DNA of 64,000 nt. Origin: Narcine bancroftii. Its lineage: Eukaryota. This document shows, piece after piece, positions 5,226 through 57,935 of this stretch; the stretch's first letter is position 1; each line of letters opens with the position of its first letter. The translations under genes were made by a program, and so were the position numbers. The notes below the pieces were generated by a model, which made no database searches, was not told the origin of the DNA, and was given only the letters and a program-made list of their open reading frames with translations. The stretch is from the NCBI RefSeq assembly GCF_036971445.1, contig NC_091473.1, forward strand, positions 205,778,001 through 205,842,000, read 5' to 3'.

Positions 5226-5692
5226 ATGTTGAAATATTCGCTGCTTATCTTCATCCTGGCTCCCTCCTCATTTAGTTGTATGCTGATTCTGCGGGCCGTT
5301 CAACGACTGATTGGTCAGCGCGTGTCCCTCCCGTCTCAGCCCAATTCTTCGCATATCCTGCACTGCGTGCTTCGTTTCAGAAGCAATTGGGGAAATGTAT
5401 GATTGACAGATGGACATGGCTGCGGGAAGGCAAACAATGGCACCCGGCTAGTGTTACCTTATATTTTGGGCCGTTAAAATTCCCTTGAAATCTTAAATAA
5501 ATGCTTAAAAATAACACCTATGGCGATGAGGTTCCCTTTCACGATTATCCAGACAGGATGACGGTTACTTTGGAGAAAAGGGCCTGGATATTCCACCTCA
5601 ATATTTTTAAGCTCTTGAAGTGGCATTGGCCGTGTATCTTGGGCGACGCGGCTCACACTGTTCTTTGGAAATTGCGGAGACGCACAAAAGCT
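5226..5692 (+). pseudogene. V pseudogene (family B) with 23-RSS at 5654-5692
   Basis: Leader-like MLKYSLLIFILA; DRMTVTLEKRAWIFHLNI; CACACTG-23 bp-ACAAAAGCT. Confidence 0.75.
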
Positions 5693-8230: not shown

Positions 8231-8276
8231 ATGTCCCTCCTGAGTTGTTTGCTGATTCTGTGGGCCTTTCCGACTG
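8231..8276 (+). other. Distal V leader exon (MSLLSCLLILWAFPT/G), now separated from its V exon by the ERV
   Basis: ACC-ATG, 46-nt open hydrophobic exon, phase-1 G|GTGAGA donor. Confidence 0.7.
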
Positions 8277-8605
8277 GTGAGACTGTCTGATTGGTCATTG
8301 ACGTCTAATCATCATCTTTTCTCTATGTTTCTCCAACTTTAACCTAAAGAAAGTTGACAATTCCCCAAAATGTTACCGTCTCCCTCTACGTTCTCGCTCT
8401 GCTTGCTCATTTACATAGCCTGTGTTTATTAAACCTCCTCACGGTTCGTCTGTTTCTCTTCTCTCTCCGTCTCTCGCTCTTGGCTGTTTTCTGGCTTGGG
8501 AAACGGCGACTCAAACAGAGTTTCTGTTGCGTCCGACGTGGGATCGCGCTCTTATATGGTGGAGCATTTGTAAAATATCCTTGCTCCGAAATGAGTCTGT
8601 GCATC

Positions 8606-9367
8606 TGTAATGGAGGATTAAAACCATGTACTCAGATGCTTTTTGCTTATGTGGAACTGACGACACTGGGTCCACACGCAGGTCACCTTACTTTCAGAAC
8701 TAGCAGATGTAATTAAACTCAGCCATGGGGACTTATCTGAAGATACACTTTGAAATGGAATTCCACCGTGAGGCCCAGGGAAAGCAGTTGTCAAATACGA
8801 CACTCTGAAATTGACGTATTGGTCACAACCTGTCTTGCTCAAGAAGTTTTAATGAGTCCTTGTATCTACGAGATAAACCAGGATATCATAGCATCCTGCT
8901 CCATAATAATTAATCTTCTAAATTGTAGAATAGTATGCTCAGCTTTGATTTTGACTGACAAATGTTAGAGGGAGTAAATTGTTTTTGGGGTATAAAAGTC
9001 TGTGGTCCTGCTGCTGAAGTTTAGACTCTCCGAGGGGTGGGAACACCCCTTGTCAAGAAGGAAGAACAGCCAGAGTCCGAGCAACGTCCCGGTCGGGGGA
9101 GGTGGAGAAGCTGCTACCAGCGCCCTGACAACCTACTACAAGTGTGCAGTTGTTGCCTCGCTTCGGCAGTTGGGACCAGTCCAAGCGTTGATAAGTATAG
9201 TTGGGAAGGGCTTGCATATTGTAGTGTGAAATCAGCTTTTGAATTAGTAATAAACATTTGTATAAACTGAACTGCTCTCGGTGTGTATGTCTATTTTCTT
9301 TCGGTAGCTAAAACACTGTGACCAATCTAAAATGAACAAAATGAGAGGTATAAGTTTACCCAAGACA
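8606..9367 (+). repeat. ERV 5' LTR (762 bp)
   Basis: TGTAATGGAGG...CCCAAGACA; TATAAAA at ~8991; AATAAA at ~9249; nearly identical to the 3' LTR. Confidence 0.95.
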
Positions 9368-9369
9368 AT

Positions 9370-9387
9370 TGGCGCTGCGAGCAGGGT
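9370..9387 (+). promoter_or_regulatory. Primer binding site, tRNA-Ser type (TGGCGCTGCGAGCAGGGT)
   Basis: Two nt after the LTR; close to the complement of the 3' end of vertebrate tRNA-Ser(TGA/CGA), recalled from memory. Confidence 0.75.
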
Positions 9388-9397
9388 TGGTCTCAAG

Positions 9398-11188
9398 ATG
9401 TTTCGCCGAAAGAAAGAGGTGAGCCCTGAGCAGTTTTTGATTCCGGGATGGACTTCCAAAGATGATGGGTTTGGCATGCTGGCTAATACCCTGTCTTTGT
9501 TGGGACCACCCATCAGTTGGGATGAAAGGTTAGAACCCTTAAGTGTGCCTCTGGGAGAGCGGGTTGCCACTCTCCTCCGAGAAAGTAAATTTCCAAAAAA
9601 ACGGGGGACGCTGACAGACGGTTTTTGGCTGCTGGCCACAGCCTTACGCCACTCCGTTCAGCGTGAAGTTGAATTAGTTCAGCAGCAGGTAAAGTCTGAA
9701 CATAAGAGAAAACAACTAGAGGAGGAAGTAGAGACTCTGCGACAGCGCTGCTCGATGATGAGCGAAATTGTTAGCACCAGTCAGGATCGTGCCAAAGAAT
9801 GGGAGGATAAGCATGTTCAAACAATTTTCCGTAATATTAAACTCCGGCAACAGCTCTGTGCGAATAAGGAAAAGCAAGGGGTAGAACCTGATCCACACCG
9901 TATTCGTGCCATGATAAGGAATGGCAATGATCCTGATGTAATTGATGATTGGGACGGGAATATCTGGTATGATGATAATGGTAATAATGCAGATACCCCC
10001 CGGCATGTGCCTGGCATACTCCCCTCTCCCTCCGCTGTTCAAGCCCGCCCCGTAAGGCAGCGGACTGTCCAAGCAGATGAAGGCGAGAGGGGGGATGATG
10101 TAAGTGCAGAAACTGAAGGGACCGGTGCTCCGATCTCCCAAGCGGACCCAGGGGAAGGCTCCCAAACCCCTGCTTATGCTAGGTGGGCTCCCCCCTCAAC
10201 GGGATGGTCTCAGCAGCCTCCCATGTGCCAGAGTGGTAACAGGGGTCGGGAGCAGTCAACAACAATACGTGACTTTATAAAAGAGCTGGCCGCCATTGGA
10301 GATCGTTTTAGGCAAAAGACAGGAGAAACTTTGGCGGCCTGGCTTCTGCGGGTTTGGGAGCAAGGGGGAGGTAGCATATATCTGACCCCTGAGGAATTGT
10401 TGGGGTTAGGATCATTAACTACTGATATTCGAGTCACTGCTGAATTACGTGGCAGAAGGAGAGATGTAGACTATTTACTTGCTACTCTAGGAGAAGCCCT
10501 GTTACGGGTGTATCCGTCACCAGTAGATTGGGATCTGCATTTGCAGAACCATTGGGGCACACCAGAGGAGGGTATAGCAGTGATTCGCCAACAGGCCGTG
10601 GCCTCTGCTTTGTATGCGGGGCGCCTGAGGCTGTGGATGCATGGGGGGAGCCCTGATGAAGAATTATTCACAGCTGGAATGCATACCCGATTGGTTCGTT
10701 CAGCCCAACCTACTATACGGGGACTGGTCCTGTCTGTAACTAGTCCGCTAATTGGGCACCTCGTATCTGAGGCGGTGCACGCCCTATCTGGACTCCAAGA
10801 ACTGGAGTTGGGAGGTAAAATCCACTCACGTACAACCCAGGTTAAAGCAGACAGACAGGATGAAAGGAGAGGGGCTGCTGATAATAATGGACTGACCAGA
10901 AAAGAGCTTTTTCTAACTTTGTTAAAGTTAGGCGTACCTAAAAGTGATATTGATGGGAAACCTACTGCAGTCTTGTATGCCCTTTATAAGAGGAAGGCAG
11001 GGGAACATCATCCCCAGATGCTGGGTCCTCCCGGCCCAGCTGTGCCTTCTGCTCCCACTGCTGCTTCTATCGAGTCAGCTTCTCCTGCCCCAGTTACCCG
11101 TGATGAGGTAAAACAATGGGTTAAACAGGCTCTTAAGGATAACAATAGCATGTGGTCCTGGAAACCCCCGAACCCTTCTGAAGCCTGA
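9398..11188 (+). CDS. gag: ERV Gag polyprotein (ERV-L/Fv1-like, no zinc knuckle)
   Basis: Open ORF; the track start at 9332 lies in U5 and the first ATG after the PBS is 9398. ERV-L-type motifs LAAWLLRVWEQGG and LTRKELFLTLLKLGVPKSDIDGKPTAVLYALYK. Confidence 0.9.
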   Translation: MFRRKKEVSPEQFLIPGWTSKDDGFGMLANTLSLLGPPISWDERLEPLSVPLGERVATLLRESKFPKKRGTLTDGFWLLATALRHSVQREVELVQQQVKSEHKRKQLEEEVETLRQRCSMMSEIVSTSQDRAKEWEDKHVQTIFRNIKLRQQLCANKEKQGVEPDPHRIRAMIRNGNDPDVIDDWDGNIWYDDNGNNADTPRHVPGILPSPSAVQARPVRQRTVQADEGERGDDVSAETEGTGAPISQADPGEGSQTPAYARWAPPSTGWSQQPPMCQSGNRGREQSTTIRDFIKELAAIGDRFRQKTGETLAAWLLRVWEQGGGSIYLTPEELLGLGSLTTDIRVTAELRGRRRDVDYLLATLGEALLRVYPSPVDWDLHLQNHWGTPEEGIAVIRQQAVASALYAGRLRLWMHGGSPDEELFTAGMHTRLVRSAQPTIRGLVLSVTSPLIGHLVSEAVHALSGLQELELGGKIHSRTTQVKADRQDERRGAADNNGLTRKELFLTLLKLGVPKSDIDGKPTAVLYALYKRKAGEHHPQMLGPPGPAVPSAPTAASIESASPAPVTRDEVKQWVKQALKDNNSMWSWKPPNPSEA

Positions 11189-13435
11189 AGGTGTGGGCAG
11201 GATTCCCGTGTCTATTCCATCGAGACACGGCGCACACACGGGGATCCGCGGCCCTACATACCATTAACAATTCACTGGGGTGGGGGTAATGATCGCCAAT
11301 ACTTGGCTTTGGTTGACACCGGTGCAGAGCACTCGGTGATTCCTGGTAACCCCGACCTCTGGAACGGACCCACATTTCGAATAGAAGGAATGGGAGGGGC
11401 AATCACCCTGGCAAAGGAAATAAAAGTCCGTGCCACGGTGGGTGATGGCCCTTCCCCCATATGGTTACATGCGTTGGTAGCTGCCACTGACGAGTGTATT
11501 CTGGGTATTAATATGTTGGCCGGTACAGCCCTTAATACTAGCCAAGGGGGGTTTGCATTCGGAATTCGGACTATTACAAAAAGATTAGTGGTGGGTCAGG
11601 CCAAGTGGGATCCCGTGGTGGTGCCACCCCCCTCAAAACCTGTATGCATTCCGCAATATCGCCTCCCTGGAGGGCAGGAGGAGATTACCGCCACCATTGA
11701 TGCTTTGAAAGAAGAAGGGGTAGTGAGGCCTGCAACGTCGCCCTTCAATAGCCCTGTTTGGCCGGTCCAGAAGCTGGACGGCTCCTGGAGAATGACAGTT
11801 GATTATCGTTTTTTGAACAAACATGCCCCACCACTTGCTTCAGCAGTTCCGGACATTGTCACTCTTATTGAAAACATTGCTACTGGGAACTCAGGAACAT
11901 GGTATGCTGTCATTGATCTCGCTAAGGCCTTCTTCAGTATTCTTATAGCTGAGGACTCACAGGATCAGTTCGCCTTTACCTGGAAGGGGCGCCAGTATAC
12001 CTTCACCCACCTTCCAGTATCGCCTTCCCTCTCAATTCACCATTATATTGATGATGTGGCCTCCTGGAGCCTCTGGCAGAAACAAGAGGGTCGCCGAGTC
12101 CCACTAGGATTCTGGTCACGTACCATGCCTGAGGCTGCCACTCGTTATTCTGTTTTTGAACAACAGTTACTAGCCTGTTACTGGGCCCTGCTAGAGACTG
12201 AAAGAATGACAGGTGATGCAGATGTTCAATTGCGACCTGCACTTCCTATAATGAATTGGGTCCTGGCTAATGATGCTAATCTAAAGATCCGGCGGGCTCA
12301 GCAGTCTTCTATTGTTAAATGGAAGTGGTATATTCAGAGTCGTGCGACCAGAGGGCCTGAAGGGGTGGGCCGCATACACGAACAGGTGGCTTACCATCCT
12401 AGGTCAGGAACTCAGTTATCGGAGGAGGGGGATGGTGGCTCCAGTCAGTATGCTGAGTTGAAGGCAGTCACTTTACCACTAGATCCCCATGATCACCCTC
12501 TTCGCCTGTTTGCTGATTCCTGGGCTTTGGCTAATGGACTTGTGGTATGGATGCCTGATTTGCAAAAGAACAACTGGATGATACATGACCGCCCAGTATG
12601 GGGCAAAGAGTTGTGGCAGCTGTTGTGGGATGCTTCCCACCATCGTGAGATAACCGTTTATCACGTTGATGCCCATACCAATATGGCGACTAACATGGCT
12701 CAACATAATGCAGTAGCAGATCAGCTTGCCACTATCAGCTGTGCTGATACCGTCCCCCTGGCTCGATGGGCACATGAACAGAGTGGTCATTTGGGGGAGA
12801 AGGGATCAGCTATGTGGTCCCATACACATGCTTTATCCATCCATAAGGATGATGTCCGCATGGTCATATGTACATGCCCAGAATGTCAGCTTGTGAAGTT
12901 CCATACCGTTCCACCTGGTCCGCATGGCCGAATAAAACGGGGTGCTCACTCAGCTGCGGTCTGGCAAATTGATTACATAGGCCCCATGCTAGACTGCATG
13001 GGTAAATATTACGTCCTAGTAATGGTTGACACCTTTTCGGGCCTGGTTTTTACTTTTCCCACCAAGACGGCTGACCAAGCTAGCACTATCCAAGGACAAA
13101 ACCATTTGATTTATCGTTATGATGTTCCAGAGGAGATTCACTCTGATAATGGCTCGCACTTCTCCGGGAAAGCAATCTGTGATTGGGCAAATGACAACAG
13201 TATTTTATGGGTCCACCATATTCCTTATTACCCGCAGGCTGCCGGGTTAGTTGAACAAATGAACGGCTTACTGAAGGAACAAATTCATTTGTTAACATCA
13301 CTGGGGACCCAGAAGGGATGGTGCCATGTGCTGCAGCAGGCAGTCGACAATTTGAATCATCGCCCTTTAAAAGGAGGTACACCTTTCCACCGACTTCTTC
13401 ACGCTCCTGAATTACAGCCTATTCCAGAGGAATAA
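11189..13435 (+). CDS. pol: ERV Pro-Pol (PR, internally deleted RT/RNase H, integrase), in frame with gag after the TGA
   Basis: LALVDTGAE; SPFNSPVWPVQKLDGSWRMTVDYR; HYIDD; SSQYAELKAV; HHCC (WAHEQSGH..CPEC); WQIDYIGP / SDNGSHF / GLVEQMNG. A likely integrase C-terminal segment continues in frame at 13436-13624 after a TAA. Confidence 0.9.
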   Translation, partial: RCGQDSRVYSIETRRTHGDPRPYIPLTIHWGGGNDRQYLALVDTGAEHSVIPGNPDLWNGPTFRIEGMGGAITLAKEIKVRATVGDGPSPIWLHALVAATDECILGINMLAGTALNTSQGGFAFGIRTITKRLVVGQAKWDPVVVPPPSKPVCIPQYRLPGGQEEITATIDALKEEGVVRPATSPFNSPVWPVQKLDGSWRMTVDYRFLNKHAPPLASAVPDIVTLIENIATGNSGTWYAVIDLAKAFFSILIAEDSQDQFAFTWKGRQYTFTHLPVSPSLSIHHYIDDVASWSLWQKQEGRRVPLGFWSRTMPEAATRYSVFEQQLLACYWALLETERMTGDADVQLRPALPIMNWVLANDANLKIRRAQQSSIVKWKWYIQSRATRGPEGVGRIHEQVAYHPRSGTQLSEEGDGGSSQYAELKAVTLPLDPHDHPLRLFADSWALANGLVVWMPDLQKNNWMIHDRPVWGKELWQLLWDASHHREITVYHVDAHTNMATNMAQHNAVADQLATISCADTVPLARWAHEQSGHLGEKGSAMWSHTHALSIHKDDVRMVICTCPECQLVKFHTVPPGPHGRIKRGAHSAAVWQIDYIGPMLDCMGKYYVLVMVDTFSGLVFTFPTKTADQASTIQGQNHLIYRYDVPEEIHSDNGSHFSGKAICDWANDNSILWVHHIPYYPQAAGLVEQMNGLLKEQIHLLTSLGTQKGWCHVLQQAVDNLNHRPLKGGTPFHRLLHAPELQPIPEE

Positions 13436-13625
13436 CAGTCAATGCCCCCCATCCCCGAACTAGAGAATGTTGGACAAAAAGTATGGGTGGCACCACCAGG
13501 TAGTGGCCCTCCTGTAAAAGGGGAAATAGTGACACCTGCCCAGGGTAACACTCGGTGGGTAGCTATTGAGGGACAGGATGATTTAGTCTGTTTAAACACT
13601 GAACGCTTATGGTATCGTGAGTGAC

Positions 13626-14048
13626 ATGTGTCAGGCTTCTTTGTTCCAGGTTCTCCATTTTACACTCCTGGTGATCTGGCTTAACAGCTGCTTTGATGCC
13701 AGCAATTGGATTTGTAATGTCGAGGACGTTCCAAGGGAGTTCCCAGTGGGAAACACGGTCCGATGCATTACACCAAGGAAGTCCTCGGTCACCAGCCTCA
13801 AGTGCAGCTTATATAAATATGTTATTGTTCAGCATGTTTCAAAATCTGTTCGTGAGCTCCAGTATCTGGGTATTGTGGCCAACAAGGATAATTTGAGCCT
13901 TGGTTGGAATCCTTTCTCATGGCTAACTGCTACATTTGGGGGAGTGGGCCACAATATCCTCCGTTGGTTGCTCGCGTCATTGCTTATCTTTGTAATTGTT
14001 GTTTTGATTTCTCTTTTTTCGCTCCCTCTGTACTCAAATACTGGTTAG
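13626..14048 (+). CDS. env: Miniature env remnant (signal peptide, short Cys-containing ectodomain, membrane-proximal and TM region)
   Basis: Lies between pol and the polypurine tract; hydrophobic N-terminus; WNPFSWLTATFGG then LLASLLIFVIVVLISLF; splice acceptor TTCTTTGTTCCAG ends at 13649. Confidence 0.7.
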   Translation: MCQASLFQVLHFTLLVIWLNSCFDASNWICNVEDVPREFPVGNTVRCITPRKSSVTSLKCSLYKYVIVQHVSKSVRELQYLGIVANKDNLSLGWNPFSWLTATFGGVGHNILRWLLASLLIFVIVVLISLFSLPLYSNTG

Positions 14049-14073
14049 GCCTCGCAAATGACAGATTGTGACC

Positions 14074-14084
14074 AAGGGGTGGAA
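14074..14084 (+). promoter_or_regulatory. Polypurine tract (AAGGGGTGGAA)
   Basis: Immediately 5' of the 3' LTR. Confidence 0.75.
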
Positions 14085-14857
14085 TGTAATGGAGGATTAA
14101 AACCATGTACTCAGATGCTTTTTGCTTATGTGGAACTGACGACACTGGGTCCACACGCAGGTCACCTTACTTTCAGAACTAGCAGATGTAATTAAACTCA
14201 GCCATGGGGACTTATCTGAAGATACACTTTGAAATGGAATTCCACCGTGAGGCCCAGGGAAAGCAGTTGTCAAATACGACACTCTGAAATTGACGTATTG
14301 GTCACAACCTGTCTTGCTCAAGAAGTTTTAATGAGTCCTTGTATCTACGAGATAAACCAGGATATCATAGCATCCTGCTCCATAATAATTAATCTTCTAA
14401 ATTGTAGAATAGTATGCTCAGCTTTGATTTTGACTGACAAATGTTAGAGGGAGTGGGTGCATGATTAATTGTTTTTGGGGTATAAAAGTCTGTGGTCCTG
14501 CTGCTGAAGTTTAGACTCTCCGAGGGGTGGGAACACCCCTTGTCAAGAAGGAAGAACAGCCAGAGTCCGAGCAACGTCCCGGTCGGGGGAGGTGGAGAAG
14601 CTGCTACCAGCGCCCTGACAACCTACTACAAGTGTGCAGTTGTTGCCTCGCTTCGGCAGTTGGGACCAGTCCAAGCGTTGATAAGTATAGTTGGGAAGGG
14701 CTTGCATATTGTAGTGTGAAATCAGCTTTTGAATTAGTAATAAACATTTGTATAAACTGAACTGCTCTCGGTGTGTATGTCTATTTTCTTTCGGTAGCTA
14801 AAACACTGTGACCAATCTAAAATGAACAAAATGAGAGGTATAAGTTTACCCAAGACA
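14085..14857 (+). repeat. ERV 3' LTR (773 bp)
   Basis: Matches the 5' LTR except a net 11-bp indel near 14455-14466. Confidence 0.95.
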
Positions 14858-14862
14858 GCATC

Positions 14863-15292
14863 ATGTTCCTACTGAGTTGTTGACTGATTCTATGCACAGT
14901 TCCTCGTGGTGAGAGAGATTGGCCAGCACGTATCCAACGAGATCCGCTCGGACCCTATCCATTCCCATATTCTGTTTTATTTCAGGGACGATTGGGAACG
15001 ATTCATTGATTCAGGAACCCCGGGAATTGGCAGTCGATGAAGAGCAGATCGTATCACTGAGCTGCAATTACTCGATGGTTGCTAACGCATATGTTTGGTA
15101 CATTCAACGACCTGGAGAATCTCCCCAATATTTGCTTGAAATCTACACCTCAGGAAACGTGGTTCCGTCTCCCGAATGTCCGCAGAGAATATCGGATTAA
15201 TTGGAGAAAAAGAGTCAGACATTCCACCTCAACATCTCTAAAAGTCTTGTGGAGGATTCCGCGTGTGTCTCTCCGCCGTGAGACACACACTG
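14863..15292 (+). pseudogene. TRAV/TRDV-like V pseudogene (family A): leader 14863-14908 with TGA, V exon 14986-15285
   Basis: DSLIQEP..VSLSCNYSMVANAYVWYIQRPGESPQYLLEIY; TAA after RISD; heptamer at 15286-15292 with spacer and nonamer deleted. Confidence 0.88.
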
Positions 15293-15569
15293 TTCCTGAG
15301 TTCAATCGGACGCTGGGGATCGGGGTCCCCCTCGACCACGGAATGGAAGGGACAGCGCGATCTTCCTGAAGGGCCTGATGAAAAGTGGAGTTGCGGGAGA
15401 TTTGCCCTCCTCTGAGCGTTTCTCTTTCACTGAGTGCTCTTGGTCCGTGTTGTAGGTTGGAAGTCAGGGGCAGAGGGAGAAATAGGTAGGTATTTGTCAG
15501 TATATTGTAGGAAAATGAAGGAATGTTGGTTAGATGGAAGCTGAGAATTTTTTAAAAATCTTAGCCGCG

Positions 15570-15840
15570 CGGGTGGTTGGGACTAACGATCCCTCAAACC
15601 TGTTATTGCTAAAATGAAGAACTATCTCCTTGGTCTTTGTGATATTGAGAACATAATTTTTGTTCTCGAACCATGCAAACTGGTTCTCGAACACTATCCT
15701 ACATTCTGACTCATCGTTTCCAATTATTTGGGCAGCCGTGGTGGCGCCTTCAGCTAATTTGTAGATTGAGCTTGGAGTGAACTTGACTGAACATCTATGA
15801 GTGAACAGTGCTAAGTTTGAAGCGAGGGAGAAATTGGTAC
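15570..15840 (-). mobile_element. Rex1/L2-clade LINE RT fragment (copies at ~24880-25140 and ~34460-34730)
   Basis: The copy at 24866-25123 reads IYKLDADTT..ESECRMVIENQFGWFENDNYVLNITKTKELVVD. Confidence 0.65.
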
Positions 15841-16149
15841 TGCTCTCGAAAGATTAACTAAGTGTAAACGGATTCGCCTTAAGGAAGGAAGCGAAAGAGA
15901 ACACGAGAAGCGGCGAGAGGGTGCAGGAAAACAAATGAAGATGAAAGAAAGGGATGAGCGAGATTGAAGAAGAGAGAGACGTCTGGTGTATGAATGTAGA
16001 CAGGTAACACTTGGGGAAAAGAGTGAGAATGAGAACGGCCAACATTAATAACCAGGTTTCATTGGTTCTGTCACTAATGAGCCGATGTGTGAGGATGGCG
16101 CCCTCTTGTGCCGCTGCTGACGCGACCCCACTGTCTTATATCGGGCGAA

Positions 16150-16637
16150 GACATTGAAATACGCTCCTGTTTATATTCATCCTGGTTTTCTTCCACTTTA
16201 GTTATTTTCAGATTCTGTGGGCCGGATGACTTGGCGAGGCTTTGTTAATTGGTCATTCCGTGTCCCTCTCTGCTCAGGTTATTTCCTCGCACCTATGCAC
16301 TGCAGACTTCTTTCCCGAAACAAATGGCGAAATGCTCTGACACACGGACATGGCCGTGGGAAGGCAAGAAGTGGCACTGACACTAGTTATCCGACAAGTG
16401 TAACCTTATATTTTTGAGTCATTACAATTCCCGTGGACCGTGACATCTTGGATATAATATACTATTCGATACGCTTCCATCTCATTATCGTCCGTACAGG
16501 ATGACGGTTACTTTGGAGAAAGGGGCCTGGATATTCCACCTCAATGTTTCGAGAGCTCTTGAAGCGGACTTGGCCGTGTATCTCTGCGTGGTGCGGCTGA
16601 AAGTGTTCTTTGGAAATTGGGCAGATGCACAAAAGCT
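16150..16637 (+). pseudogene. V pseudogene (family B), heptamer mutated
   Basis: MTVTLEKGAWIFHLNVSRALEADLAVYLCVVR; nonamer ACAAAAGCT. Confidence 0.72.
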
Positions 16638-16719
16638 GATTCTGAAATCGGTTGTGGGTGGAAACAAAACCGGAGACAAGGGACGCGAGGCTCAGAGTGA
16701 GGCAGTCATATGGCAACTC

Positions 16720-18120
16720 GATCACACTCCCGCCACTCTCTGAGTGGAGGTTCCCCCTCAACCTTTCCTCTTTCACCATAAAGCTATGTCCAGTTGCAGT
16801 CATCTATCCAAATCTAATTGGAAAGAGCCTACTTAATTTTACAGTGTCTAAAACTCTCTTAAATTAGTAAATCTCAATCCAGCATCCCCTTATTCCTCAA
16901 CGCTACAAGTCCTAACGTGTGTAATATTTCCCTGTTATTCAACTCTTGAAGACTCACAACATCCAAGTAAGTCTCTTTGCACTCTTCCAATCTTAAATAA
17001 ACCCGTTGTATAGTTTGGCGACCGGAAGTGCACACAGAACTCCAAATGTTCTCATATTTTCTATACTCTTCTCGTTGCTCATTTTCTCTTTGTTCCCAAT
17101 ACACACTTTAGACCTTCTTCACCAGATCGTAAATGTCCTCGAAAACCAAGGTTCCCTCTGCCTGTTATCTGTGCCTTTAATCGTGATAGGAACGGGCAAA
17201 ATCTGCTCTCTCAAAATGTCGCATTTGAAGGCCTTCCATTGACTGAACATATATTTGCCATTAAACAGATTATTCCAGTCCACTACCTCGATCCTTTCAC
17301 ATTTCCATAAATTGGCCTCTCACTAATTTATAATATTAACTCGAGGGCTTGACTTATCCATATTAATATTTAATTTGAAAATAATGACATTATTGTCACT
17401 CGACCCAAATGTTCACCTACACGTGCTTCTGTCACCTGAACTGTATGGTTCCCTTACATGAGATCAAGTATTGCATCAGCTCTCGTTATGTTGAATAAGA
17501 AATCTTTCCTGAACAGATTTGACAAACGTTAAGCCACCCAGCCGTTTTACCACATGGGGGTCCAGTCAAGATATGGAAAATGAAAATCACCTTCTATCCC
17601 AACTTTCTGTTTCTTACATCGGTCTGCTTACTTTTTTCAGATTTGCACCGTCAATTATCTCGGACTATTGTACGGTCTATAATACAACCCTTTCAGAGTG
17701 GCTGCACCTTATCCGTTGCTTAGCTACATCCATATGGCCTCTGAGGCCTGTCCTGTCTAATCTCACTCCTCCCCCTTTCACCATCCCACATCATGTCTGA
17801 AAGAGAGAATCATGCAGCAATGTGCTGCCAGTCCTACTGCTCCTGCAACCACCTCTCACCAAAGGCAATAAAGACGCAATTCCACGCCTTAAAACCGCCC
17901 GCCTTTGTGGCAATACTCGTCGCTTTGAAATAAATAGAATATTTCTATCGTGTGCAAACCTTTGATTTCTGTATATACATGCAGTCCTCACATGGCATTC
18001 ATCCACATCCACCTCACTATCAGCTCTCACACTCTGGTTTCTCTCCCCCTACAAATCAAACTTAACCCTCCGCAACAGCATAAGCAATCCTGCCCGCAAG
18101 GCAGGATACAAACCCCCTGT
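16720..18120 (-). mobile_element. CR1-type LINE remnants (3' end and endonuclease pieces)
   Basis: GHSFMVKEERLRGNL..; homologous to 6310-7360 and 26060-27520. Confidence 0.75.
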
Positions 18121-18711: not shown

Positions 18712-19355
18712 ATGTCCCTCCTGAGTTGTGTGCTGATTCTGTGGGCCTTTCTGACTGGTGAGAAGGTCTGATTGGTCAGCGACGTCTATCCATCGTCTTT
18801 TCCCGTTGTATCTCCAGCTTTAACCTAATCAAAATTGAGAAATCCCCCAAAATGTTGTTTCCGACTTGGTATCGCGCTCTTATATAGTCGAGCATTTGTA
18901 AAATATTCTTCCTCCGAATTGAGTCCGGGCATTATTTTTCTACTGTGCTGTTGGCTGGTTGTTTGCGGCACTCTACCTGGTGAGAGTGATTGGTAAACAA
19001 GTCTAGTGGCATCAGCGTCATCCCGTGCGATTAACATCTTCTATTTTGTTCCAGGGGCGAGTGGGAACGATTCAGTTAATCAAGACCCCACGGAATTGGT
19101 GGTCTATGAAGGGCAGATCGTATCACTGAGCTGCAGTTACTTGAAGAGCCTGACGGCATATATTTGGTATATTCATCATCCTGGCGAATCTCCCAAATAT
19201 CTGCTGAAAATCTACACGTCAGGAGAGGCGTTTCCGTCTCGAGATTTTCCGGAGAGGATATCGGGTACATTGGAGAAAAAGAGTCAGAAATCCCACCTTA
19301 ACATCTCTAAAAGCCTTGTGGAGGATTCCGCCGTGTATCTCTGCGCAGTGAAGCA
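18712..19355 (+). CDS. TRAV: Potentially functional TCR alpha/delta V segment: distal leader exon 18712-18757 spliced to V exon 19055-19355
   Basis: Leader MSLLSCVLILWAFLT/G with G|GTGAGA (phase 1); acceptor TTTTGTTCCAG; open V with both Cys and the Trp (VSLSCSY..WYIHHPGESPKYLL..EDSAVYLCAVK). The proximal leader 18934-18979 has ATT in place of ATG. Confidence 0.8.
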
Positions 19356-19394
19356 CACGTTGTTCCCGGGCAGTGGCAGATCCGTACAAAAAAC
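19356..19394 (+). promoter_or_regulatory. 23-RSS (CACGTTG-23 bp-ACAAAAAAC)
   Basis: Spacer TTCCCGGGCAGTGGCAGATCCGT counted as 23 nt. Confidence 0.85.
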
Positions 19395-19976: not shown

Positions 19977-20464
19977 ATGTTGAAATATTCGCAGTTTATC
20001 TTCATGTTGGCTTGCTCCCCATTCAGTTGTTTGGTGATTCTGTGGACCGTTCAACTTGGCGAGCCTCTGACCTATTGGTCAGCGCTTGTCCCTCCTGGCT
20101 CAGCGCAATTCCTCGCATATCCTGCTCTGCGAGCTTCATTCCAGGAACAAATGGGGAAATGTAGTAACACACGGAAATGTCTGCGGGAAGCAAAGCAGAG
20201 TCACTGAAACTAGTTATACGACAAGTGTTACCTTATATTTTTGGGATGTCAAAATCTCCGTGGATCATGAAATCTTGGATATAATATCCAGTTCGATGTG
20301 GTTCAGACTCATGAACGTTCGGACAGGATGACGGTTACTTTGGAGAAAAGGGTCTGGATATTACACCTCAATATCTCGAAAGCTCTTGAAGCCGACTTGG
20401 CCGTGTGTAACTGCGCGGTGAGGCTCACACTGTTCTTTGGAAATTGCGGAGATGCACAAAAGCT
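19977..20464 (+). pseudogene. V pseudogene (family B) with 23-RSS at 20426-20464
   Basis: LHLNISKALEADLAVCNCAVR; CACACTG-TTCTTTGGAAATTGCGGAGATGC-ACAAAAGCT. Confidence 0.75.
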
Positions 20465-20841
20465 GATTCTGAAATTGGATGTGGGTGGAATCAAAACGGG
20501 AGGAATAGGCCGAGCACGTGAAAATGTTAGATAGAATGAGCTAGAGGAATAGAATGAAAGAAGGGGAGAGAGGGAGCGAGGGAGGAGATAAAAAGACGGA
20601 AGACACGGGGACTGTACAGATTGAGGGAGAAACCGTGAAAGAAGGAGAGTGCGATGCAGACTGTCTTCACAACGCGGTCTGATTGGTTTACGAATGATAT
20701 CATCAACAAATCTTGTGTGAAGGAAACTCATTCATATCTTCCCCAGGTTGTTTGCCCGCTCATAACATCGACCGAACCGTATTTCCCTATATTCAGCTGT
20801 AATACAGTGAAATCTTGGCATTTGACCTTAATCCGCAGATC

Positions 20842-25479: not shown

Positions 25480-25969
25480 AAGACGTTGAAATATGCTCCT
25501 GTTTATATTCATCCTGGATTCCTTCTCATTCAGTTGTTGTCTGATTCTGTGGGCCGTTCTACTTGCAGAACCTCTGTCTAATTTGTCAGCGACTGTCCCT
25601 CCCAGCTCAGACTATTTCCTCGCAGATCTGCACTGTTTGCTTCTTTCCCGAAACACATGGGGAAATGCTGTGACACACGGACATGGCAGCGGGAAGGCAA
25701 GAAGTGGCACTGACACTAGTTACTCGAAAGGTGTAACCTTATTGTTTTGAGACGTTACAATTCCTGTGGACCGTGAGATCTTGGATATAACATATATTCG
25801 ATGCGCTTTGGTCTCATGATCGTCCGGAGAGGATAACAGCTCCTTTGGGGAAAATGACCTGGATATTCCACCTCAATGTTTCGAAAGCTCTTGAAGCGGA
25901 CTTGGCCATGTATCTCTGCGCGATGCCACTCACACTGTTCTTTGGAAATTGCGGAGATGCACAAAAGCT
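25480..25969 (+). pseudogene. V pseudogene (family B) with 23-RSS at 25931-25969
   Basis: WIFHLNVSKALEADLAMYLCAMP; CACACTG-23-ACAAAAGCT. Confidence 0.75.
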
Positions 25970-26059
25970 GATTCTGAATTCGGCTGTGGGTGGAAACAAA
26001 ACCAGAGACAGAGGACGGGAGACTCAGAGTGAGGAAGTCATATGGCAACTCGATCACAC

Positions 26060-29393: not shown

Positions 29394-29845
29394 ATGTTGA
29401 AATATTCGCTGTTTATCTTCATGCTGGCTTGCTCCCCATTCAGTTTTTTGTTGATTCTGTGGGCCGTTCAACTTGGCGAGCCTCTGACTGATTTGTCAGC
29501 GTGTGTCCCTACTGGCTCAGCACAATTCCTCGCATATCCGTCAATGCGAGCTTCATTCCAGGAAGAAATGGGGAAATGTAGTAACACACGGAAATGTCTG
29601 CGGGAAGCCAAGCAGTGTCACTGAAACTAGTTATACGACAAGTGTTGCCTTAAATTCTTTGGACGATAAAATCCCCTGGATCGTGAAATCTTGGATATAA
29701 CATCATATTCGATGTGGTTCAGTCTCACGATCGTCCGGACAGGATGACGGTTACTTTGGAGAAAAGGATCCAGATATTACACCTCAATATCTGGAACGCT
29801 CTTGAAGCGGTCTTTGGAAATTGCGAAGACGCACAAAAGCTGAAT
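29394..29845 (+). pseudogene. V pseudogene (family B), 3' end and heptamer deleted
   Basis: DRMTVTLEKRIQILHLNI; nonamer retained. Confidence 0.68.
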
Positions 29846-34934: not shown

Positions 34935-35404
34935 TGCTGAAATATTCGCCTGTTTATCTTCATCCTGGCTTCCTCCCCATTCAGTTTTTTCTGCTGATCC
35001 TGTGGGCCGTTCCACTTGTCTGATTGGTCAGCGCGTGTCCCTTCCGGCTCAGCGCAATTCTTCGCGCATCATAAACTGCGTGCCTCGTTACAGGAACAAA
35101 TGGGGAAATGTAGTGTCACACGTACATGTCCGCGGGAAGGCAAGCAGTGTCACTGACTTCTATTTAATCGACAAATGTAACCTTATATTTGTGGTACGTT
35201 AAAATTCCCGTTGACCGTGAAATCTTGGGAATAACATCCTAGTCGATGTGGCTCCGTGTCACGATTGTCTGGCCAGGGTGACGGTTAATTTGGAGCAAAG
35301 GGGCCGGATATTCCACCTCAAAAATCTTGAACCGGCTTGGACGTGTCTCTCTGCGCGGTGCGGCTCACACTGTTCTTTGGAAATTGCGGAGATGCACAAA
35401 AGCT
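34935..35404 (+). pseudogene. V pseudogene (family B) with 23-RSS at 35366-35404
   Basis: LCAVR followed by CACACTG-TTCTTTGGAAATTGCGGAGATGC-ACAAAAGCT. Confidence 0.72.
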
Positions 35405-37559
35405 GATTCTGAAATCGGATGTGGGTGGAATAAAATCCGGAGACAGAGGACGCGAGAACGGGTAAGGAACTCCTTACGGTCGAGCAGCTGAAAATATTAG
35501 ATACAACGAGCTAGAGGAATAGAATGAAAGAAGGGGTGAGAGGGAGTGAAGGAGGATAAAAAAAAGAGGTAAGACTCGGGGTGTGTACAGGTCGAGAGAG
35601 AAACCTTGGTGGAAGAAGGGGAACGTGATGCAGAATGTCTTCTCAACGCCATCTGATTGGTTGACGAATGATAACATCAACCAATCCTGTGTGAAGGAAA
35701 CTTATTCATATCTACCCCAGGTTTTAGTCGCTCATAACATCTTCCAAACACTTGTATACTGGTAGCACAAGGAAAATTTCTTTTGATGTTAATCCACAAA
35801 CCATGATCTTCTTGAATGGTTTGGTAATTCTTTGGGCTGTTCTTACTGGTTAGTCTGTCTGACTGGTCAGCGACCTCAGCCCATTGCNNNNNNNNNNNNN
35901 NNNNNNNNNNNNNNNNNNNNNNNNNNNNNNNNNNNNNNNNNNNNNNNNNNNNNNNNNNNNNNNNNNNNNNNNNNNNNNNNNNNNNNNNNNNNNNNNNNNN
36001 NNNNNNNNNNNNNNNNNNNNNNNNNNNNNNNNNNNAAATCTGCATGAAGCTAATTTTCTTGAATTTTAAATATGGTCGGAAAACAGGAAGAACAATGAAC
36101 CGTAAATCTGTTTGAGAAATAGGTAACAGAAGAAATAGTTCGCAGGTGTCTGTTTTTGGCGAGTGGGGGTGTGGGAGAGGTGGAGAGGGTGGGGGGAGGT
36201 AGGAGACCGACCATGAAACTGCAAGGAAGGTCAGTAAACACAATAAGTGTATAAATGAGTAAGCAGAGGGAGAATGTGCAAGGAAGAGCGCAAATTTTGG
36301 GGAAATCGTCTGTCTTTAATTAGGTTAAAGCTGGAGATTAGTAGAGAAAGGGCAATGGGCTGAGGTCGCTGACCAGTCAGACAGACTCACCTGTAAGAAC
36401 GGCCCAAAGAATCACCACACCACTCAAGAAGTTCATGGTATGTGGATTAAGATCAAAAGAAAATTTCCTTGTGCTACTGCTGTACAAGTGGTGGAACGAG
36501 AAAGAGAGGGAGAGGTGAGATCAGGTGAAAAAGTGAGAGAGATGGAAGTCCAGAATGTCAGTCTCTCGGATGTCTGAGCATCCGTTATTGCTCTAGAAAT
36601 TTGTTTGTTCCAGGTCATGTGGCTAAATTAGTATTTTCAATCCCGTATTGCTGAAATTCGCGATCAACAACAGCCGTGACACATCTTAATGTTGACTTTG
36701 CGGTCGATCGCCTCACTGATCCTGTTATGTTCCTACACTTCAATCAAATGAGAATGCTATCAGATGTTTGCGGATATCTTGTTCCATCCAATCCGATCGT
36801 TGTCAGTTGTTGGCACAGCAGAGTAATGGGTTCATTGTTTGGCATTTGTATTGTTGCCTCGAGTTTGGCGGACTTTAATTATATTCACACACGAAGCATT
36901 ATATAGTGCCAATCTTTAGAATACTCAAGCTCCTCAGATAACTTTCCATTTTAATATTGGCACCTGTAAGCAGGCATTGGAAAATGGAAGTTATTACAAA
37001 TATTAAGGAAGAAGATGAAAATTTCTGCAATATTGCTTTTGTGAAAAGGGGCTGCCAGGACATGACCGGAGTATAGGCTGAAAGAGCATTGGCAGTCGGG
37101 TTTCTGAGAGTGCACACCTTCAGTTACACGTATTCGGGTTAAAGATACGAGGTAAGAAGGTACCGATGTACGATATTATGGTTATGTATGGAGTTACAGG
37201 CCTTGCTTAGGTTGAAAACCATAAATCTGCTGGCAATTTTCTTTACATTGGAGGTCCTGCGAAGGGAGTTTAATGAATGCCAAGGAGGTGGGCAGTTAAA
37301 TGCACAATTATAGTAATCAGCATTGATGCATATTCTAACATTGAGTTTAAATTAGATGTATTGTTCGTTGGCGAATAGTTCCTTGCAATTGCTTTTTAGA
37401 AGATAGCTGAAGAACTCAAAGTCTAATAAAATGATCTTGCTGCATAAATGATTTCAATACATGAAATAAAAACGTATTTCATCACATCGTCTGTTTGCTC
37501 TGCATTCTTTATCACTGAAGCCAACAATGAAAGTTTCAGAGAAAATATTACGTTGTATC

Positions 37560-40069: not shown

Positions 40070-40763
40070 TGTCCTGGGTAAATTTGTACCTCGCATTTCG
40101 TTCGTTTTAGATTGGTCAATGTTTGAGCTACTGAAAGAAAATAGACACACACTCCGAGAGCACTTCATTTTATACAAATCTTCATTACAAATTCTAAATC
40201 TGATATCAAACTAAAATATTCAAGCCCTTGCCAATTATACCTATCAACACCTGGACTGGTCCCAACTGTCGAAGCGAGTCAATGACCGTAGCAGGTTGTC
40301 GGGGCGCCTGCTTCTCCACCTCCCCTGGCTGGACTCTAGAAGTTCTTCTTCTTGCTGAGAGATGTTGCCACCTCTCGGAGCGTCTCAAACTTCAGCAGCG
40401 GGACCATGGCTTATATTACCCCAAAACTGCACACACAAGCACCTATTCCCAGCACAGAAAGAAAGACAAGCAGGCAAGCAAGCATGCCTAGGCTTCTATC
40501 GAATAACATGATTTTCAGCTTACCGCTTTGGATACAATGGTTTATTGTGCATTAGTGTTAGGCCTCCGACAGTCTGTGACCAAAACAAGCAGGAAGATTA
40601 AATGTTCTTGGGACACAGATATCCTTTCGTCAGATAACTGCATCTCTGGCCCCTCGGTGGAATTTAGCTTATGTCTGCTGATTCTTAACAACAAGCAGGT
40701 TCTCAGCCTTGCAGAAGCAAAGGATGTAAAAGTAAAAACACATGGTCTAAATCTTCGATTACA
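40070..40763 (-). mobile_element. Solo LTR of the same ERV family
   Basis: Minus strand reads TGTAATCGAAGATTTAGACC...ACCCAGGACA; flanks TACCC/TAGCC; absent from the paralog at ~61.36 kb. Confidence 0.8.
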
Positions 40764-41475: not shown

Positions 41476-42129
41476 TGTAATGGAGGATTTAGACCAGCTT
41501 ATGCAAGAAGGGATGCAGTTGCATCAGAAGACATAATCTAAACTCCACCATGGGGCACAGTGATGCAGTTGAATAGGAAGACATAATCTAATTTACACCA
41601 TGACGCCCAGGATGCATATGAATTAGTAGACACATCTAAATTCCACCGTGAGATCCAGGGATGCAGTTTTATTTTGTTGGTCGCAGACTGTCAGGAGACC
41701 TTGAAGATAATTAAATAATTTCTTCAAAGAGATAGGCTATGAGTAAACAATTTATTGGGTAATATAAGCCATGGTCCCACTGCTGAAATGTTGACTCTCT
41801 GAGTTGTGGAAACGTCTCTCAGCAAGAAGAACGTCTAGAGTTCTGTTTACATCATGGACGGGGAAGGTGGAGAAGCTGCTACCCGCGCCCTGACAACCTA
41901 CAAGTGTGCGGTCATAGCCTTGCTTCGGTAGTTGGGACCATTCCAGGCATTGATAAGTATAATTGGGAAGGGCTTGCATATTGTAGTTTGAAATCAGCTT
42001 TTGAATTTGTAATAAACATTTGTATAAACTGAACATCTCCCAGTGTGGGTGTCTATTTTCTTTCAGTAGCTCGAACACTGTGACCAATCTAAAACGAACA
42101 AAGTGAGAGGTACAAGTTTACCCAGGACA
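41476..42129 (+). mobile_element. Solo LTR of the same ERV family
   Basis: TGTAATGGAGGATTT...ACCCAGGACA; R/U5 similar to 9000-9367; empty site at ~62033. Confidence 0.85.
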
Positions 42130-43829
42130 ACAGACTGCATCTTCTATTTGTAATACAGCCATCTTTTCAGTTTGAAGAAAGTGTGACACTTGTCCACAGC
42201 ACTTCTGTTTTGTTGTTGCATCATATGTTCTACATATTGTCTGTTAATTTGCCTGTATTTCAGAAAAGACAATATTATTTACTACGTATCAACAGAAATG
42301 GCAACGAAAAACTCAAAGTTTTAATTTATGTTATCTGCCATTTGAGAGCCAGGAGGATAATATAAATAAAAATGCACCAGCAATCATCCTTGAAGAACCT
42401 TTTGAATATGTGGCATTCTGATTTGAAATGAGTCTGGCCTAATAATATAAGGATCAGTTTAATTGCAATAGATGCTTCAGAAACTTCCATCGATTTAAAG
42501 GTTTCTGGATCAACACATTAACCAGCACTGAAAATCAAATATGCTGGAAAAAGGTATTTAATTTAATTTGGCTTACTACTCCGTGCTATATTATGTGCTA
42601 TCTTCTCGAATGCACAGCGCTTAAATCCGAACAGTAAAGAATCCAAGTATCAAGTGAATAAACACACCTTTAAAAGATCAATAGCGTGATTCATTGGGAA
42701 GCTTATATTATTCACGTGATCCTAGCATTATATCATTAACATTATATGAGACACGATCAAGTCCGGTGAAAATAAACTGGCCATATTTGAGTTAACCACC
42801 ATGTTCACCAAGCATAAGAAGTGAAATATTAAATGTAATGAGGCCAGTTCGGGCGAATATAATGGCAACGTCATTTGTAAAACCATTAACAAAATCTAGA
42901 ATAAACCGGAGAATACAGGCTGAAAGGATGACAAGCAGGTGTAAAACTATGAACGGAGCTGCTGCTTTTGATGGGAAAACTTTCATCGAAAGAGTGAAAA
43001 ATGCCTTTGCAGTGGAACATGATATATGGACTATCCACTTCAAAAGCGCCAGTGTGAGATGAAGAATGACCGGGCCAACTATTAGAAGGTCTATTTAATA
43101 ATAAATGGCGGATTAACTTAAATAATGCGAAACGTGCAAAATACACAGGGACTAAAGGATGAGCCCTCGGCATGCTATTCCATATGGTAATACTGGTCAC
43201 ATCTGCTATAATGTCGACCACAGGGTCTTATTGGGGCAAGAGAGCATCAAGTGAGAGGCCCGAGTGCATTTGGGGATGAGTATGACAAAAGTGCAACTTC
43301 AGATAAATTGTGCGAAGCGACTCTTAGCATCTTTGCTACTTAGACCCACATGCATCTTGGTGACATTAGTTAACTTTTGCATATTATTCCTGGCCTTATT
43401 ACACCTATTGTAGGGATAAGTGAACAACTTGATGCAAAAGAGATCATGAATCGAAAACATATATTTTCAGATTTATGTGTTGGTGAATGATATGCCATTC
43501 CCGTACAGTACACAAACTTATGCGCCAACAGAACACCATTTCCCCGTTATTTGAGCCAATGATTAGGCTTTTATATTATTCCAGTTATTCAAGTAAAGCA
43601 CACAATATATTTCCTCAGCGCGATTCAAATTTCACATATCCGTGTGCTGAAATAGTGGAGTTCAGTTGATGAGAAATGAGCCCTTGTCATCTCGAAGTTT
43701 TAGCACAATATTGAAAGGTGGGAGTGAATGAAAGGCTGCTAGTTGAACGGCACGTCGCATGACGGGGCTTCGGTAAAGTAAAGAAAAATAAAGAAAGGGA
43801 AAGTAAAATAAAGATAAAGAAGTAAGAAA

Positions 43830-49300: not shown

Positions 49301-49978
49301 AATTAGTCTGGAAAAACAACCACCTGAAGAAACACACAAAGATCAGCGTTTGCAGAGCCGTTGTCATATCCATGCTTTTGTTCGGATCGAATGATGGGTA
49401 CTCTACCTGCATCATCTACAGCTCCGAAAACGCTTCCATCAGCGCTGTCTCCGCTCAATCCTCAACATTCATTGCAATGACAAAGTTGCAATGGCAGAGT
49501 CTGCAAGCATCAAATGCATGCTGCTGAAGACACAACTGCGTTGGGTGGGTCACGTCTCCAGAATGGAGGACCATCGCCTTCCCTAGATCGTGTTCTATGG
49601 CGAGCTCTCCACTGGCCACCGAGACAGAGGTGCACCAAAGAAGAGGTAAGAGGACTGCTTAAAGAAATATCTTGGTGCCTGCCACATTGACCACCGCCAG
49701 TGGGCTGATATCGCCTCCAACCGTGCATCTTGGCGCCTCACAGTTTGGCGGGCAGCAACCTCCTTTGAAGAAGACTACAGAGCCCACCTCACTGTCAATA
49801 GACAAAGGAGGAGGAACCCAACACCCAATCCCAACCAACCAATTTTCCCTTGCAACCGCTGCAACCATGCCTGCCTGTCCCGCATCGGACTTGTCAGCCA
49901 CCAACGAGTCTGTAGTAGACGTGGACATACCCCTCTATAAATTTTCGTCTGCAAAGCCAAGTCAAAGTAAGTAAAGTA
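46400..49978 (+). mobile_element. Near full-length RTE-clade (BovB/RTE-1-like) LINE, inactivated
   Basis: Endonuclease: KLACWNIRTMLD..RPERR..GYTLYWSG, ILGDFNA. RT: NYRGITLLS, GVKQGCIFAP. C-terminal CxxC..H motif; (AAGT)-like tail; several stops and frameshifts. Confidence 0.92.
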
Positions 49979-50627
49979 TATATGAGATTATCTGATACGC
50001 TCTCTCCGACTTTGTGCATTTCAATTTCTATCCACTAAGGTTTGTCTCCTCGGTGAAAGAGGGAAGTGACAAATTTCATCTGGGCCTCTCATATGGTATT
50101 TCCAAAATTATGTTCCATGGAGACTTTGGCTAACCTAATTTTCCAAGGAAACTTCGTAACTAACTTACTAATATTAAACAAAATCTTCCTTGGTAATGGC
50201 GCTGGAAGTGTCTGAAAGATTTACTGTCTACATGGAAATATATTTAATTTCATACAATTAAGTCTTCCAAATTTATTAGAAAAGTTGACCATTCATTTAA
50301 AGCTTCTTCAACCTTTTAAAACAAGGGGTTGTAGTTCATTTTTCCACAAACTCTTCAAGTCATTATCTGTTTTTAATCCCAAAATACATAATCGCATTCT
50401 TCAGCCTACGGTGTGGATTTCTTGTTGATGAACAGGTGTTTGTAATTCCCTCAAAGGGCCAAAGCCCTTTCCTGCTCACTATTGGGAACTACTAAGGTGA
50501 AGGAAAGAAAACGTGAAAACCAGTCTTCTGATGTGAGGAAGAAGTAAAGAAAAATGGAGAGAGAGTAAAAGTGGATATGACCCTTGAGTCAGAGCACACT
50601 CTCGACAAAACCATTTAGCTCTCAATT

Positions 50628-56799: not shown

Positions 56800-57117
56800 C
56801 ACTGTTGTATGTCGAAAATTCAATGTCTCACAATAGTTTGAGCTTTCGCGAGAAGATCAACGATCTGTAAGAGGGAATTGCAGTGACGACACTGTCATTT
56901 GGTATATTTGGTGAACTGAAGCATAATCGAAATATCTTCTTCAGATATTGAGTAGTGGATCCGAAGAGCGATCTCGATTCTCTAGCCAGGGGTTCCGCTG
57001 TTATGATATCAGTATACATTTAGATTTCTCTGTGATCCTTGTGTTAGAAACCGAAGCGTTTGCGTGTGCCATGAGACACACTCGACGGCGGAGAAGCAGC
57101 GGACCCGAACACAGGAC
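56800..57117 (+). pseudogene. Very decayed V relic of a divergent family
   Basis: NVSQ..SVRGNCSDDTVIWYI..SKYLLQILSSG..FACAMR, then a degenerate heptamer-23-nonamer at 57079-57117. Confidence 0.55.
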
Positions 57118-57634: not shown

Positions 57635-57935
57635 GCGCCTTTGGCGATTATTCTATCTCCGAGTATCAATCTGACGTGTCGGAGGAAGAAGGACGAACTG
57701 TAACGCTGAACTGGAATTACACGGCTCCATACCATGCCGATATAGCCGTCTGGTATATCCTGCATCCTGGACATTCGTCTCGATACGTACTGAAAATATT
57801 AAGCACTGGGCTCGAATGCAAGTCGTCAAATTTCTGAAACCGATTTTATGCTGTTTATCAGAAAAGAAATCGGCTGGTTCTATTAACAATATAGGGCGTC
57901 CTTGTCTTCGACTCCGACTCAGCAATGTGGTCGAA
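57635..57935 (+). pseudogene. V pseudogene of a divergent family
   Basis: Acceptor TTTTCTCTTCTGTTGCAG; AFGDYSISEYQSDVSEEEGRTVTLNWNY..VWYILHPGHSSRYVLKIL..LLTI*GVLVFDS; stops, both Cys lost. Confidence 0.7.

Follow-up and report, generated by a model that had tools for sequence, protein, structure and literature searches.

Class III endogenous retroviruses (ERVs) belong to the clade Huo, which is present in all major vertebrate lineages (PMC6001957). XtERV-S of Xenopus tropicalis, for which DYRGLN is listed as a motif (PMC8278194), and ERV-L are the described elements with which the provirus reported here compares, while its host locus resembles the T-cell-receptor (TCR) alpha/delta V cluster of the nurse shark, where many V segments serve both alpha and delta chains (PMC5931798). 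We analyzed a 64,000-nt stretch of the genome of the electric ray Narcine bancroftii (contig NC_091473.1, positions 205,778,001 to 205,842,000, forward strand; hereafter the window, to whose first letter all positions below refer), in which a provirus interrupts one unit of a tandem TCR V cluster. An earlier note on the window had described this provirus as a young class III ERV integrated into an open promoter, exactly at the start codon of a V leader, from where its long terminal repeat (LTR) might drive germline V transcription. The class and the exact position held up, whereas the promoter context did not: our analysis points to a defective XtERV-S-like class III ERV that probably inserted neutrally, into the intron of a TCR V gene which was dead by then.

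The provirus lies at 8606-14857 (6,252 bp; all its features are on the forward strand, i.e. in the sense of the V gene) between two copies of the target-site duplication (TSD) GCATC, at 8601-8605 and 14858-14862. Its 5′ LTR (8606-9367, 762 nt; TATAAAA at 8991, AATAAA at 9249) and 3′ LTR (14085-14857, 773 nt; TATAAAA at 14481, AATAAA at 14739) share this orientation and have TGT...ACA ends. Alignment of the pair bore out the near-identity that the note had judged by eye: the two LTRs differ at a single spot near 8974, where the 5′ copy is 11 nt shorter and one adjacent position is mismatched, with zero other substitutions over 761 aligned positions. The 5′ LTR is followed by an 18-nt primer-binding site with a TGG start (9370-9387), which we take to be of the serine-tRNA type (that of ERV-L being presumably of the leucine type), and by an open gag frame of 596 codons (9398-11188) that includes the GT of the viral splice donor at 9419. 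The gag stop, TGA at 11186-11188, is in frame with pol, which resumes at 11189 as a pro-pol frame of 748 codons (11189-13435) comprising a protease, a partial reverse transcriptase (RT), RNase H and an integrase core according to Pfam. Pfam search of this frame gave no dUTPase match, and none is precomputed for P0001 either. What is left of env is a 132-codon open frame (13650-14048) with a signal-like start and a membrane anchor, the middle being missing, and a polypurine-tract-like run (14074-14084) precedes the 3′ LTR.

The env remnant sits behind a splice acceptor that is used. A joint of 9418 to 13650 (GT..AG) occurs in X7, X8 and X9, and the same skip in X6, while it is not among eight DNA joints. 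X6 to X9 are four runs guessed to be RNA; they were available as assembled contigs, which drop rare forms and cannot show transcription starts, and they come from samples not known to carry the insertion. The env-type splice puts the first seven gag codons (9398-9418) in frame with the 132-codon frame. This frame is 98% conserved in two further copies, and the Narcine ERV subfamily may make a small, putative membrane protein. The remnant itself had no Pfam match; over parts of its length, it is 80-87% identical to Narcine Env models, one of which (P0179) matches TLV_coat (E 8.8e-15).

The RT core of the provirus is mostly gone. The Pfam RVT_1 match in Pol covers only positions 2-114 of the 205 in the profile and, relative to full-length relatives, in-frame gaps of ~20 and ~150 residues flank the YIDD motif and a further gap of ~57 residues precedes RNase H. 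The provirus is therefore without a complete RT, which an autonomous provirus would have. Decay of pol in place was considered as the cause and ruled out by the gaps that Narcine relatives have in common with it: at all three deletion places, 14/14 Narcine bancroftii cluster members align gap-free to the provirus Pol, which argues that the deletions were inherited at the source. We infer that this defective subfamily was copied in trans by helper-supplied RT. Pol is 95% identical to proteins annotated in N. bancroftii. Its identity to the other copies, taken singly, is 93.9-96.2% in 13 cases (the fourteenth member was left out for want of an anchor motif), and seven of these copies are 99-100% alike. 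This distance suggests that the donor belonged to a separate sub-lineage whose differences are older than the insertion.

Internal contigs of the element reach 54-67 times the depth of window-type flank contigs (X1, X3 and X4; a rough measure), which corresponds to roughly 30-60 copies of the subfamily per haploid genome, depending on the baseline. In run X5, from organism B, the listed ERV-family pieces are 99-100% identical to the element and the one listed flank piece is 96% identical; this pattern would fit shared recent activity or close kinship of organism B. Almost no flanks and no junction are among the pieces listed for X5, which is uninformative on the insertion site. Two older partial LTRs, 79% and 82% identical to the provirus LTR, lie in opposite orientations at 40070-40426 (reverse strand) and 41741-42130 (forward strand). 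Full-text searches of the open-access literature, subscription papers and supplements aside, listed no description of this ERV family or locus.

As judged from its sequence, the provirus is an XtERV-S/ERV-L-like class III ERV, i.e. a known kind of element. The top named Pol matches are amphibian, fish, bird and mouse ERVs that bear XtERV-S/ERV-L motifs, including an X. tropicalis relative (P0008) with 47% identity over aligned residues and the motif DYRGLN, and a mouse cluster (P0009, 753 members), likewise 47% identical, with the ERV-L motif DYRKLN. Among Protein Data Bank (PDB) structures, Pol ranks foamy-virus integrase first (1.6e-21) and foamy-virus Pol second (3.5e-19), ahead of the RT of Moloney murine leukemia virus (MMLV or MoMLV; 5e-14). 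In a quick tree, Pol falls into a set with a support of 98 together with the X. tropicalis and mouse rows; as gamma, epsilon, beta and foamy rows were not part of it, the tree groups Pol in this way but is no proof of class. Taken together, the Pol matches, the motifs, the foamy-first ranking and the TSD and LTR ends agree with the class assigned in the note.

The window as a whole is a tandem cluster of TCR V units. Its sole intact V frame matches the V-set family, with alpha chains as the best TCR matches among PDB structures, and several forward-strand units are followed by recombination signal sequences (RSSs, judged by the RSS consensus) with a 23-nt spacer; alpha and delta are not distinguishable here, the window having no C region. 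In every unit of the target V family, there are two tandem, homologous, 46-nt leader-like exons (distal/proximal pairs at 3818/4160, 8231/14863, 18712/18934, 20842/21248, ~23771/24152, 28455/28561, 30242/30925 and 33376/33751). In the interrupted unit, the distal exon (8231-8276) has an ATG, 15 codons without a stop and a GT donor at 8277, and is likely the true leader. The proximal, vestigial one (14863-14908) has an ATG, an in-frame TGA at codon 7 and a GT donor at 14909, at a distance of 52 nt from the end of the LTR. It is this second leader that the provirus abuts: the ATG at 14863 follows directly on the 3′ copy of GCATC, which thus occupies positions -5 to -1, and the sense-oriented 3′ LTR ends 5 bp before it, exactly as the note had stated.

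Several lines of evidence suggest that this ATG is not a working start codon. If leaders with an ATG, a GT donor and no stop are counted as intact, 6/8 units have an intact distal leader (the eighth was scored from a pairwise alignment) and 0/8 an intact proximal one (Fisher p = 0.007, with paralogs that are not independent). The proximal leaders are broken differently in each of the eight units, by a stop, a lost ATG, a lost donor or a deletion, and in the intact V only the distal leader supplies an ATG, the proximal one reading ATT. Because of this distribution, the ATG at 14863 most likely survives as a relic only, and the provirus, situated 324 nt past the donor of the distal leader, would be inside the leader-V intron. 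Homologs were of little help with leader use: a near-length search found none, a representative search yielded relatives of at most 52% identity, and the homolog leaders inspected (14 of 150) showed a specific match to neither leader.

The V exon behind the relic leader (14986-15285, forward strand, TCR alpha/delta-like) is a pseudogene, as the note had recognized, with a stop at 15198-15200, a 1-nt frameshift near 15258 and loss of the second conserved cysteine. Its RSS is reduced to a remnant (15286-15298), in which a heptamer-like CACACTG is followed by a 37-nt gap in place of the nonamer and most of the spacer. By these features, i.e. the stops, the frameshift, the lost cysteine and the absence of an RSS nonamer, the target V is unable to rearrange and does not qualify as a functional TCR V. 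This also removes the basis for the suggestion that LTR transcription could affect RAG accessibility of the target V itself. At least five lesions in the unit (leader stop, V stop, frameshift, cysteine, RSS gap) stand beside near-identical LTRs, which suggests that the V was dead before the insertion. In addition, of eight V-end motifs found in the window only one lies in an open V frame, and insertions that survive in this cluster would usually be found in dead sequence. The only intact V unit found is also the nearest (18712-19394, forward strand; distal leader at 18712, proximal leader without ATG at 18934, V exon at 19055-19355, 23-spacer RSS at 19356-19394) and hence the only plausible regulatory target of the provirus.

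Sites without the provirus occur both within the window and in DNA contigs. None of the seven paralogous units carries the element (0/7), in line with the note. Its reading of the ATG context in these copies was right for most of them: GCATCATG stands at the equivalent place in 5/7 units (4155, 21243, 24147, 30920 and 33746), while the other two have ATT for ATG. Mapping, which had been proposed as a check for an empty site, did reveal one: an empty junction of 8600 to 14858 (a skip of 6257 with 5 shared letters) appears in 3/4 DNA runs, all three from one sample, whereas the fourth run is of another organism and does not cover it. The sample may be the window's own source and is not independent support for the filled form. 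Depth is 5-7 at the empty junction and ~8 in window-type flank contigs, only 8428-8605 being higher (12-17); the empty copy is about equally likely to be the other allele or a close paralog with an identical 178-nt tract. A reading of these depths as an unfixed (heterozygous) insertion was withdrawn, as the flanks all stand at ~8 and the diploid baseline is unknown. That no listed contig spans either filled junction, and that the empty form is present in the same sample, would also fit a multicopy provirus misplaced into the V cluster by the assembly. We regard such an artefact as very improbable: the 5-bp TSD is exact and the LTR ends are canonical, the window Pol represents a distinct sub-lineage rather than a collapsed average, and a flank contig of X3 ends exactly at 8605 while the empty-junction contig starts 30 letters earlier. 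Given the way contigs are built, these ends suggest that the filled and the empty form part from each other at the TSD.

The LTR comparison puts the insertion at no more than ~2.0, 3.9 or 9.9 million time units at 1e-9, 5e-10 or 2e-10 substitutions per site per unit, respectively. At the mutation rate of the epaulette shark (7e-10 per generation; PMC10587355), the bound is ~2.8 million generations (hand arithmetic). Thus, the insertion is likely young; of the recent date claimed in the note, the relative youth stands with the near-identical LTRs, while in absolute terms the bound is loose, at most a few million generations.

Does the position beside an ATG call for an explanation? Set against 8-16 leader-like starts within ~30 kb of host DNA, an exact hit has a chance of 0.03-0.05% per insertion and a hit within 5 bp one of 0.3-0.6%; some ATG follows 484/28,748 possible sites (1.7%). 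Such a hit is rare for a single insertion, but with tens of copies in the family and a site singled out retrospectively from a large scan, targeting is not needed to account for it. An element that prefers promoter-like or open chromatin, so that the start-codon position reflects targeting, would account for the exact position (for which the narrowest definition gives a chance of ~3-5 in 10,000 per insertion) and would fit the fair conservation of the 60 nt upstream among units. We nevertheless consider this improbable. The leader is vestigial in 8/8 units, and the TATA-like word at 8552-8557 (forward strand), which the note had taken as the native promoter region, is not conserved: its core (8553-8556) recurs in only 2/7 other units, for which reason a TATA box at ~8551 was dismissed. 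With proximal leaders broken throughout and distal ones mostly intact, integration into an open V promoter, as put forward in the note, finds no footing here. Moreover, an insertion that is inherited must have occurred in a germ cell or in an early embryo; V promoters are not expected to be open there, and germ-line integration would be unlikely to meet an active one.

The explanations that would give the provirus a regulatory role start from its surroundings. Transcripts that start in the 3′ LTR (TATA at 14481) meet the AATAAA at 14739 and are expected to end inside the LTR, and no functional gene or RSS lies directly downstream, the nearest intact RSS being 4,499 nt from the LTR end. Conceivably, however, the 3′ LTR fires and the donor of the spare host leader recruits U1 and suppresses the polyadenylation (poly(A)) signal of the LTR, such that sterile transcripts, spliced into the dead V and running toward the intact V 3.9-4.5 kb away, change its use. 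Viral and host donors indeed both lie 52 nt behind an LTR end and 170 nt behind an AATAAA, and the viral one is used, as the joint to 13650 in the probable RNA runs indicates. In HIV-1, the 5′ poly(A) signal is suppressed via U1 at a donor that lies 195 nt downstream, and the lack of a following donor is what lets the 3′ site function (PMC3694450); suppression is independent of a donor in MoMLV, according to the same source, and hence not universal. Transcription through RSSs opens them to RAG, and the LTR of mouse mammary tumor virus (MMTV) can make an RSS in tight association with it accessible (PMC3335570). Furthermore, the shorter LTR is the 5′ one, by 11 nt ~17 nt upstream of its TATA motif, an older relative at 40.4 kb aligning without this gap. 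Yet the neighbouring RSS has been destroyed, four A[A/T]TAAA words (16996, 17260, 17867 and 17929) intervene between the LTR and the intact RSS, and a donor-like word follows within 20-120 nt at 20% of random sites. No piece crossing 14857/14858 from the LTR side is among the 32 of 6,259 pieces listed, which is evidence neither way. We consider the suppression of the poly(A) signal by the host donor, with its consequences, unlikely. The boldest form of this reading, that the 3′ LTR would escape polyadenylation via this donor, drive spliced sterile V-cluster transcripts and shift the use of the neighbouring intact V on its haplotype, appears slightly less likely again. Insertion of avian leukosis virus (ALV) at c-myc is of the promoter-insertion type. 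The present arrangement shares with it, and with the accessibility conferred by the MMTV LTR (PMC3335570), a sense LTR directly upstream of a host exon with a donor; in contrast to both, the exon here has a stop, the V is frameshifted, the RSS is gone and the 5′ LTR is present. Were the host donor to act in this way, host sequence alone would turn a 3′ LTR into a promoter, and comparison of alleles at this locus would test whether germline transcription controls V use in the lineage that is the oldest to have RAG-based receptors. If the same animal has the empty counterpart as well, the transcription-accessibility model could further be tested in a cartilaginous fish by a natural experiment within one individual.

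Nearly as plausible, though by the same token doubtful, is the opposite effect, i.e. that the sense provirus cuts off a sterile transcript from the distal promoter and lowers downstream transcription, either through the poly(A) signal of the 5′ LTR or by splicing of the distal leader donor at 8277 to the env acceptor at 13650. A ~90% paralog that does not have the provirus appears in X6 and X7 as unspliced contigs, which run from at least 8378 across the empty site through the V, covering the whole unit to ~17390 in X7 and part of it in X6; depth at 15168 is all paralog-type in these two runs, and there is none in X8 and X9. If X6 and X7 are RNA, transcription of this type of unit would start upstream of the supposed TATA. 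Two RefSeq gene models of N. bancroftii, HSPBAP1 isoform X4 and NKAIN3-like isoform X2 (P0176 and P0177), end in the 132-residue env remnant, which starts exactly at the viral acceptor; by these models, the env acceptor of the family apparently traps host exons at other loci. Against such a cut-off, no joint of 8276 to 13650 is among the 15 of 23 RNA joints listed, its product would leave the reading frame and reach a stop after 10 codons, the host fusions are known from gene models only, and the interrupted gene is dead, so that a phenotype would need an effect on neighbours. Independently of this question, the unspliced paralog contigs (8378-17390 equivalent), which extend ~2 kb past the RSS, would, provided that the runs are RNA, be candidates for germline (sterile) V transcripts in a ray. 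An X6 contig ~96% like the intact V (19153-19354) stops one base short of the RSS heptamer, as might be expected of a rearranged transcript.

Some observations weigh against a purely neutral insertion. A host donor at the exact spacing of the viral one, as at 14909, is expected at 71/28,748 sites (0.25%). All four probable RNA runs contain the LTR family in abundance. The regions upstream of the two leaders are about equally conserved, with 26/109 invariant columns for the proximal and 35/164 for the distal one, and by this measure the proximal leader may have, or may have had, a promoter in front of it. Finally, neither leader is seen in a spliced transcript among the RNA joints listed (15 of 23). 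Even so, the neutral insertion remains our preferred explanation. A helper element would have supplied RT in trans to a defective class III provirus, which would have inserted itself directly ahead of the ATG of a spare leader that is broken, duplicating 5 bp, inside the leader-V intron. The V would already have been dead at this time, the distal leader being the working one. The landing beside the ATG would then be chance, and the provirus would persist as a harmless passenger without effect on the repertoire. On this most likely reading, the locus is a defective ERV in a dead V gene and of little consequence.

Besides the target V family, the window contains a second V family that alternates with it (~5260-5690, 16190-16630, 20010-20465, 25520-25970, 29430-29830 and 34970-35405). 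Its leader-like exons are without ATG and no open V frame was found in it, while four members retain a full heptamer-23-nonamer RSS. Two more distant V-like remnants lie at 56840-56962 and 57640-57810, and a broken long interspersed element (LINE)-like element with endonuclease- and RT-like frames, presumably RTE-like, at 46500-50000 (forward strand).

With respect to known systems, the host locus is reminiscent of the nurse shark TCR alpha/delta V cluster (PMC5931798) in its V-set exons, 46-nt leader exon, 23-spacer RSSs and tandem units; in the Narcine cluster, by contrast, each unit has two homologous leader-like exons and most units are pseudogenes. The provirus resembles ERV-L in its 5-bp TSD, in Pol similarity and in having foamy-virus integrase and RT as the closest solved structures (PMC6001957; PMC8278194, Table 2). 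However, ERV-L is env-less with a dUTPase after integrase, whereas the Narcine element has an env remnant and no dUTPase match. It is therefore not an ERV-L in the strict sense, loss of the dUTPase by deletion in the Narcine subfamily being possible. With XtERV-S, as described in PMC8278194, it shares a single-frame gag-TGA-pol arrangement, TGT...ACA LTR ends, the 5-bp TSD and YIDD, as well as a spliced env with a class I-like transmembrane protein and many internally deleted copies with near-identical LTRs. Differences lie in the host, here a ray, and in the Narcine copy being without most of the RT core, the middle of env and a post-integrase dUTPase match. Moreover, deleted Xenopus copies usually keep only the primer-binding site, gag leader, 5′ gag and polypurine tract (PMC8278194), whereas the deleted Narcine subfamily retains open gag, pol and env-remnant frames. 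The locus thus adds to the known XtERV-S-like elements a recently amplified, apparently still transcribed and probably helper-dependent family in an electric ray.

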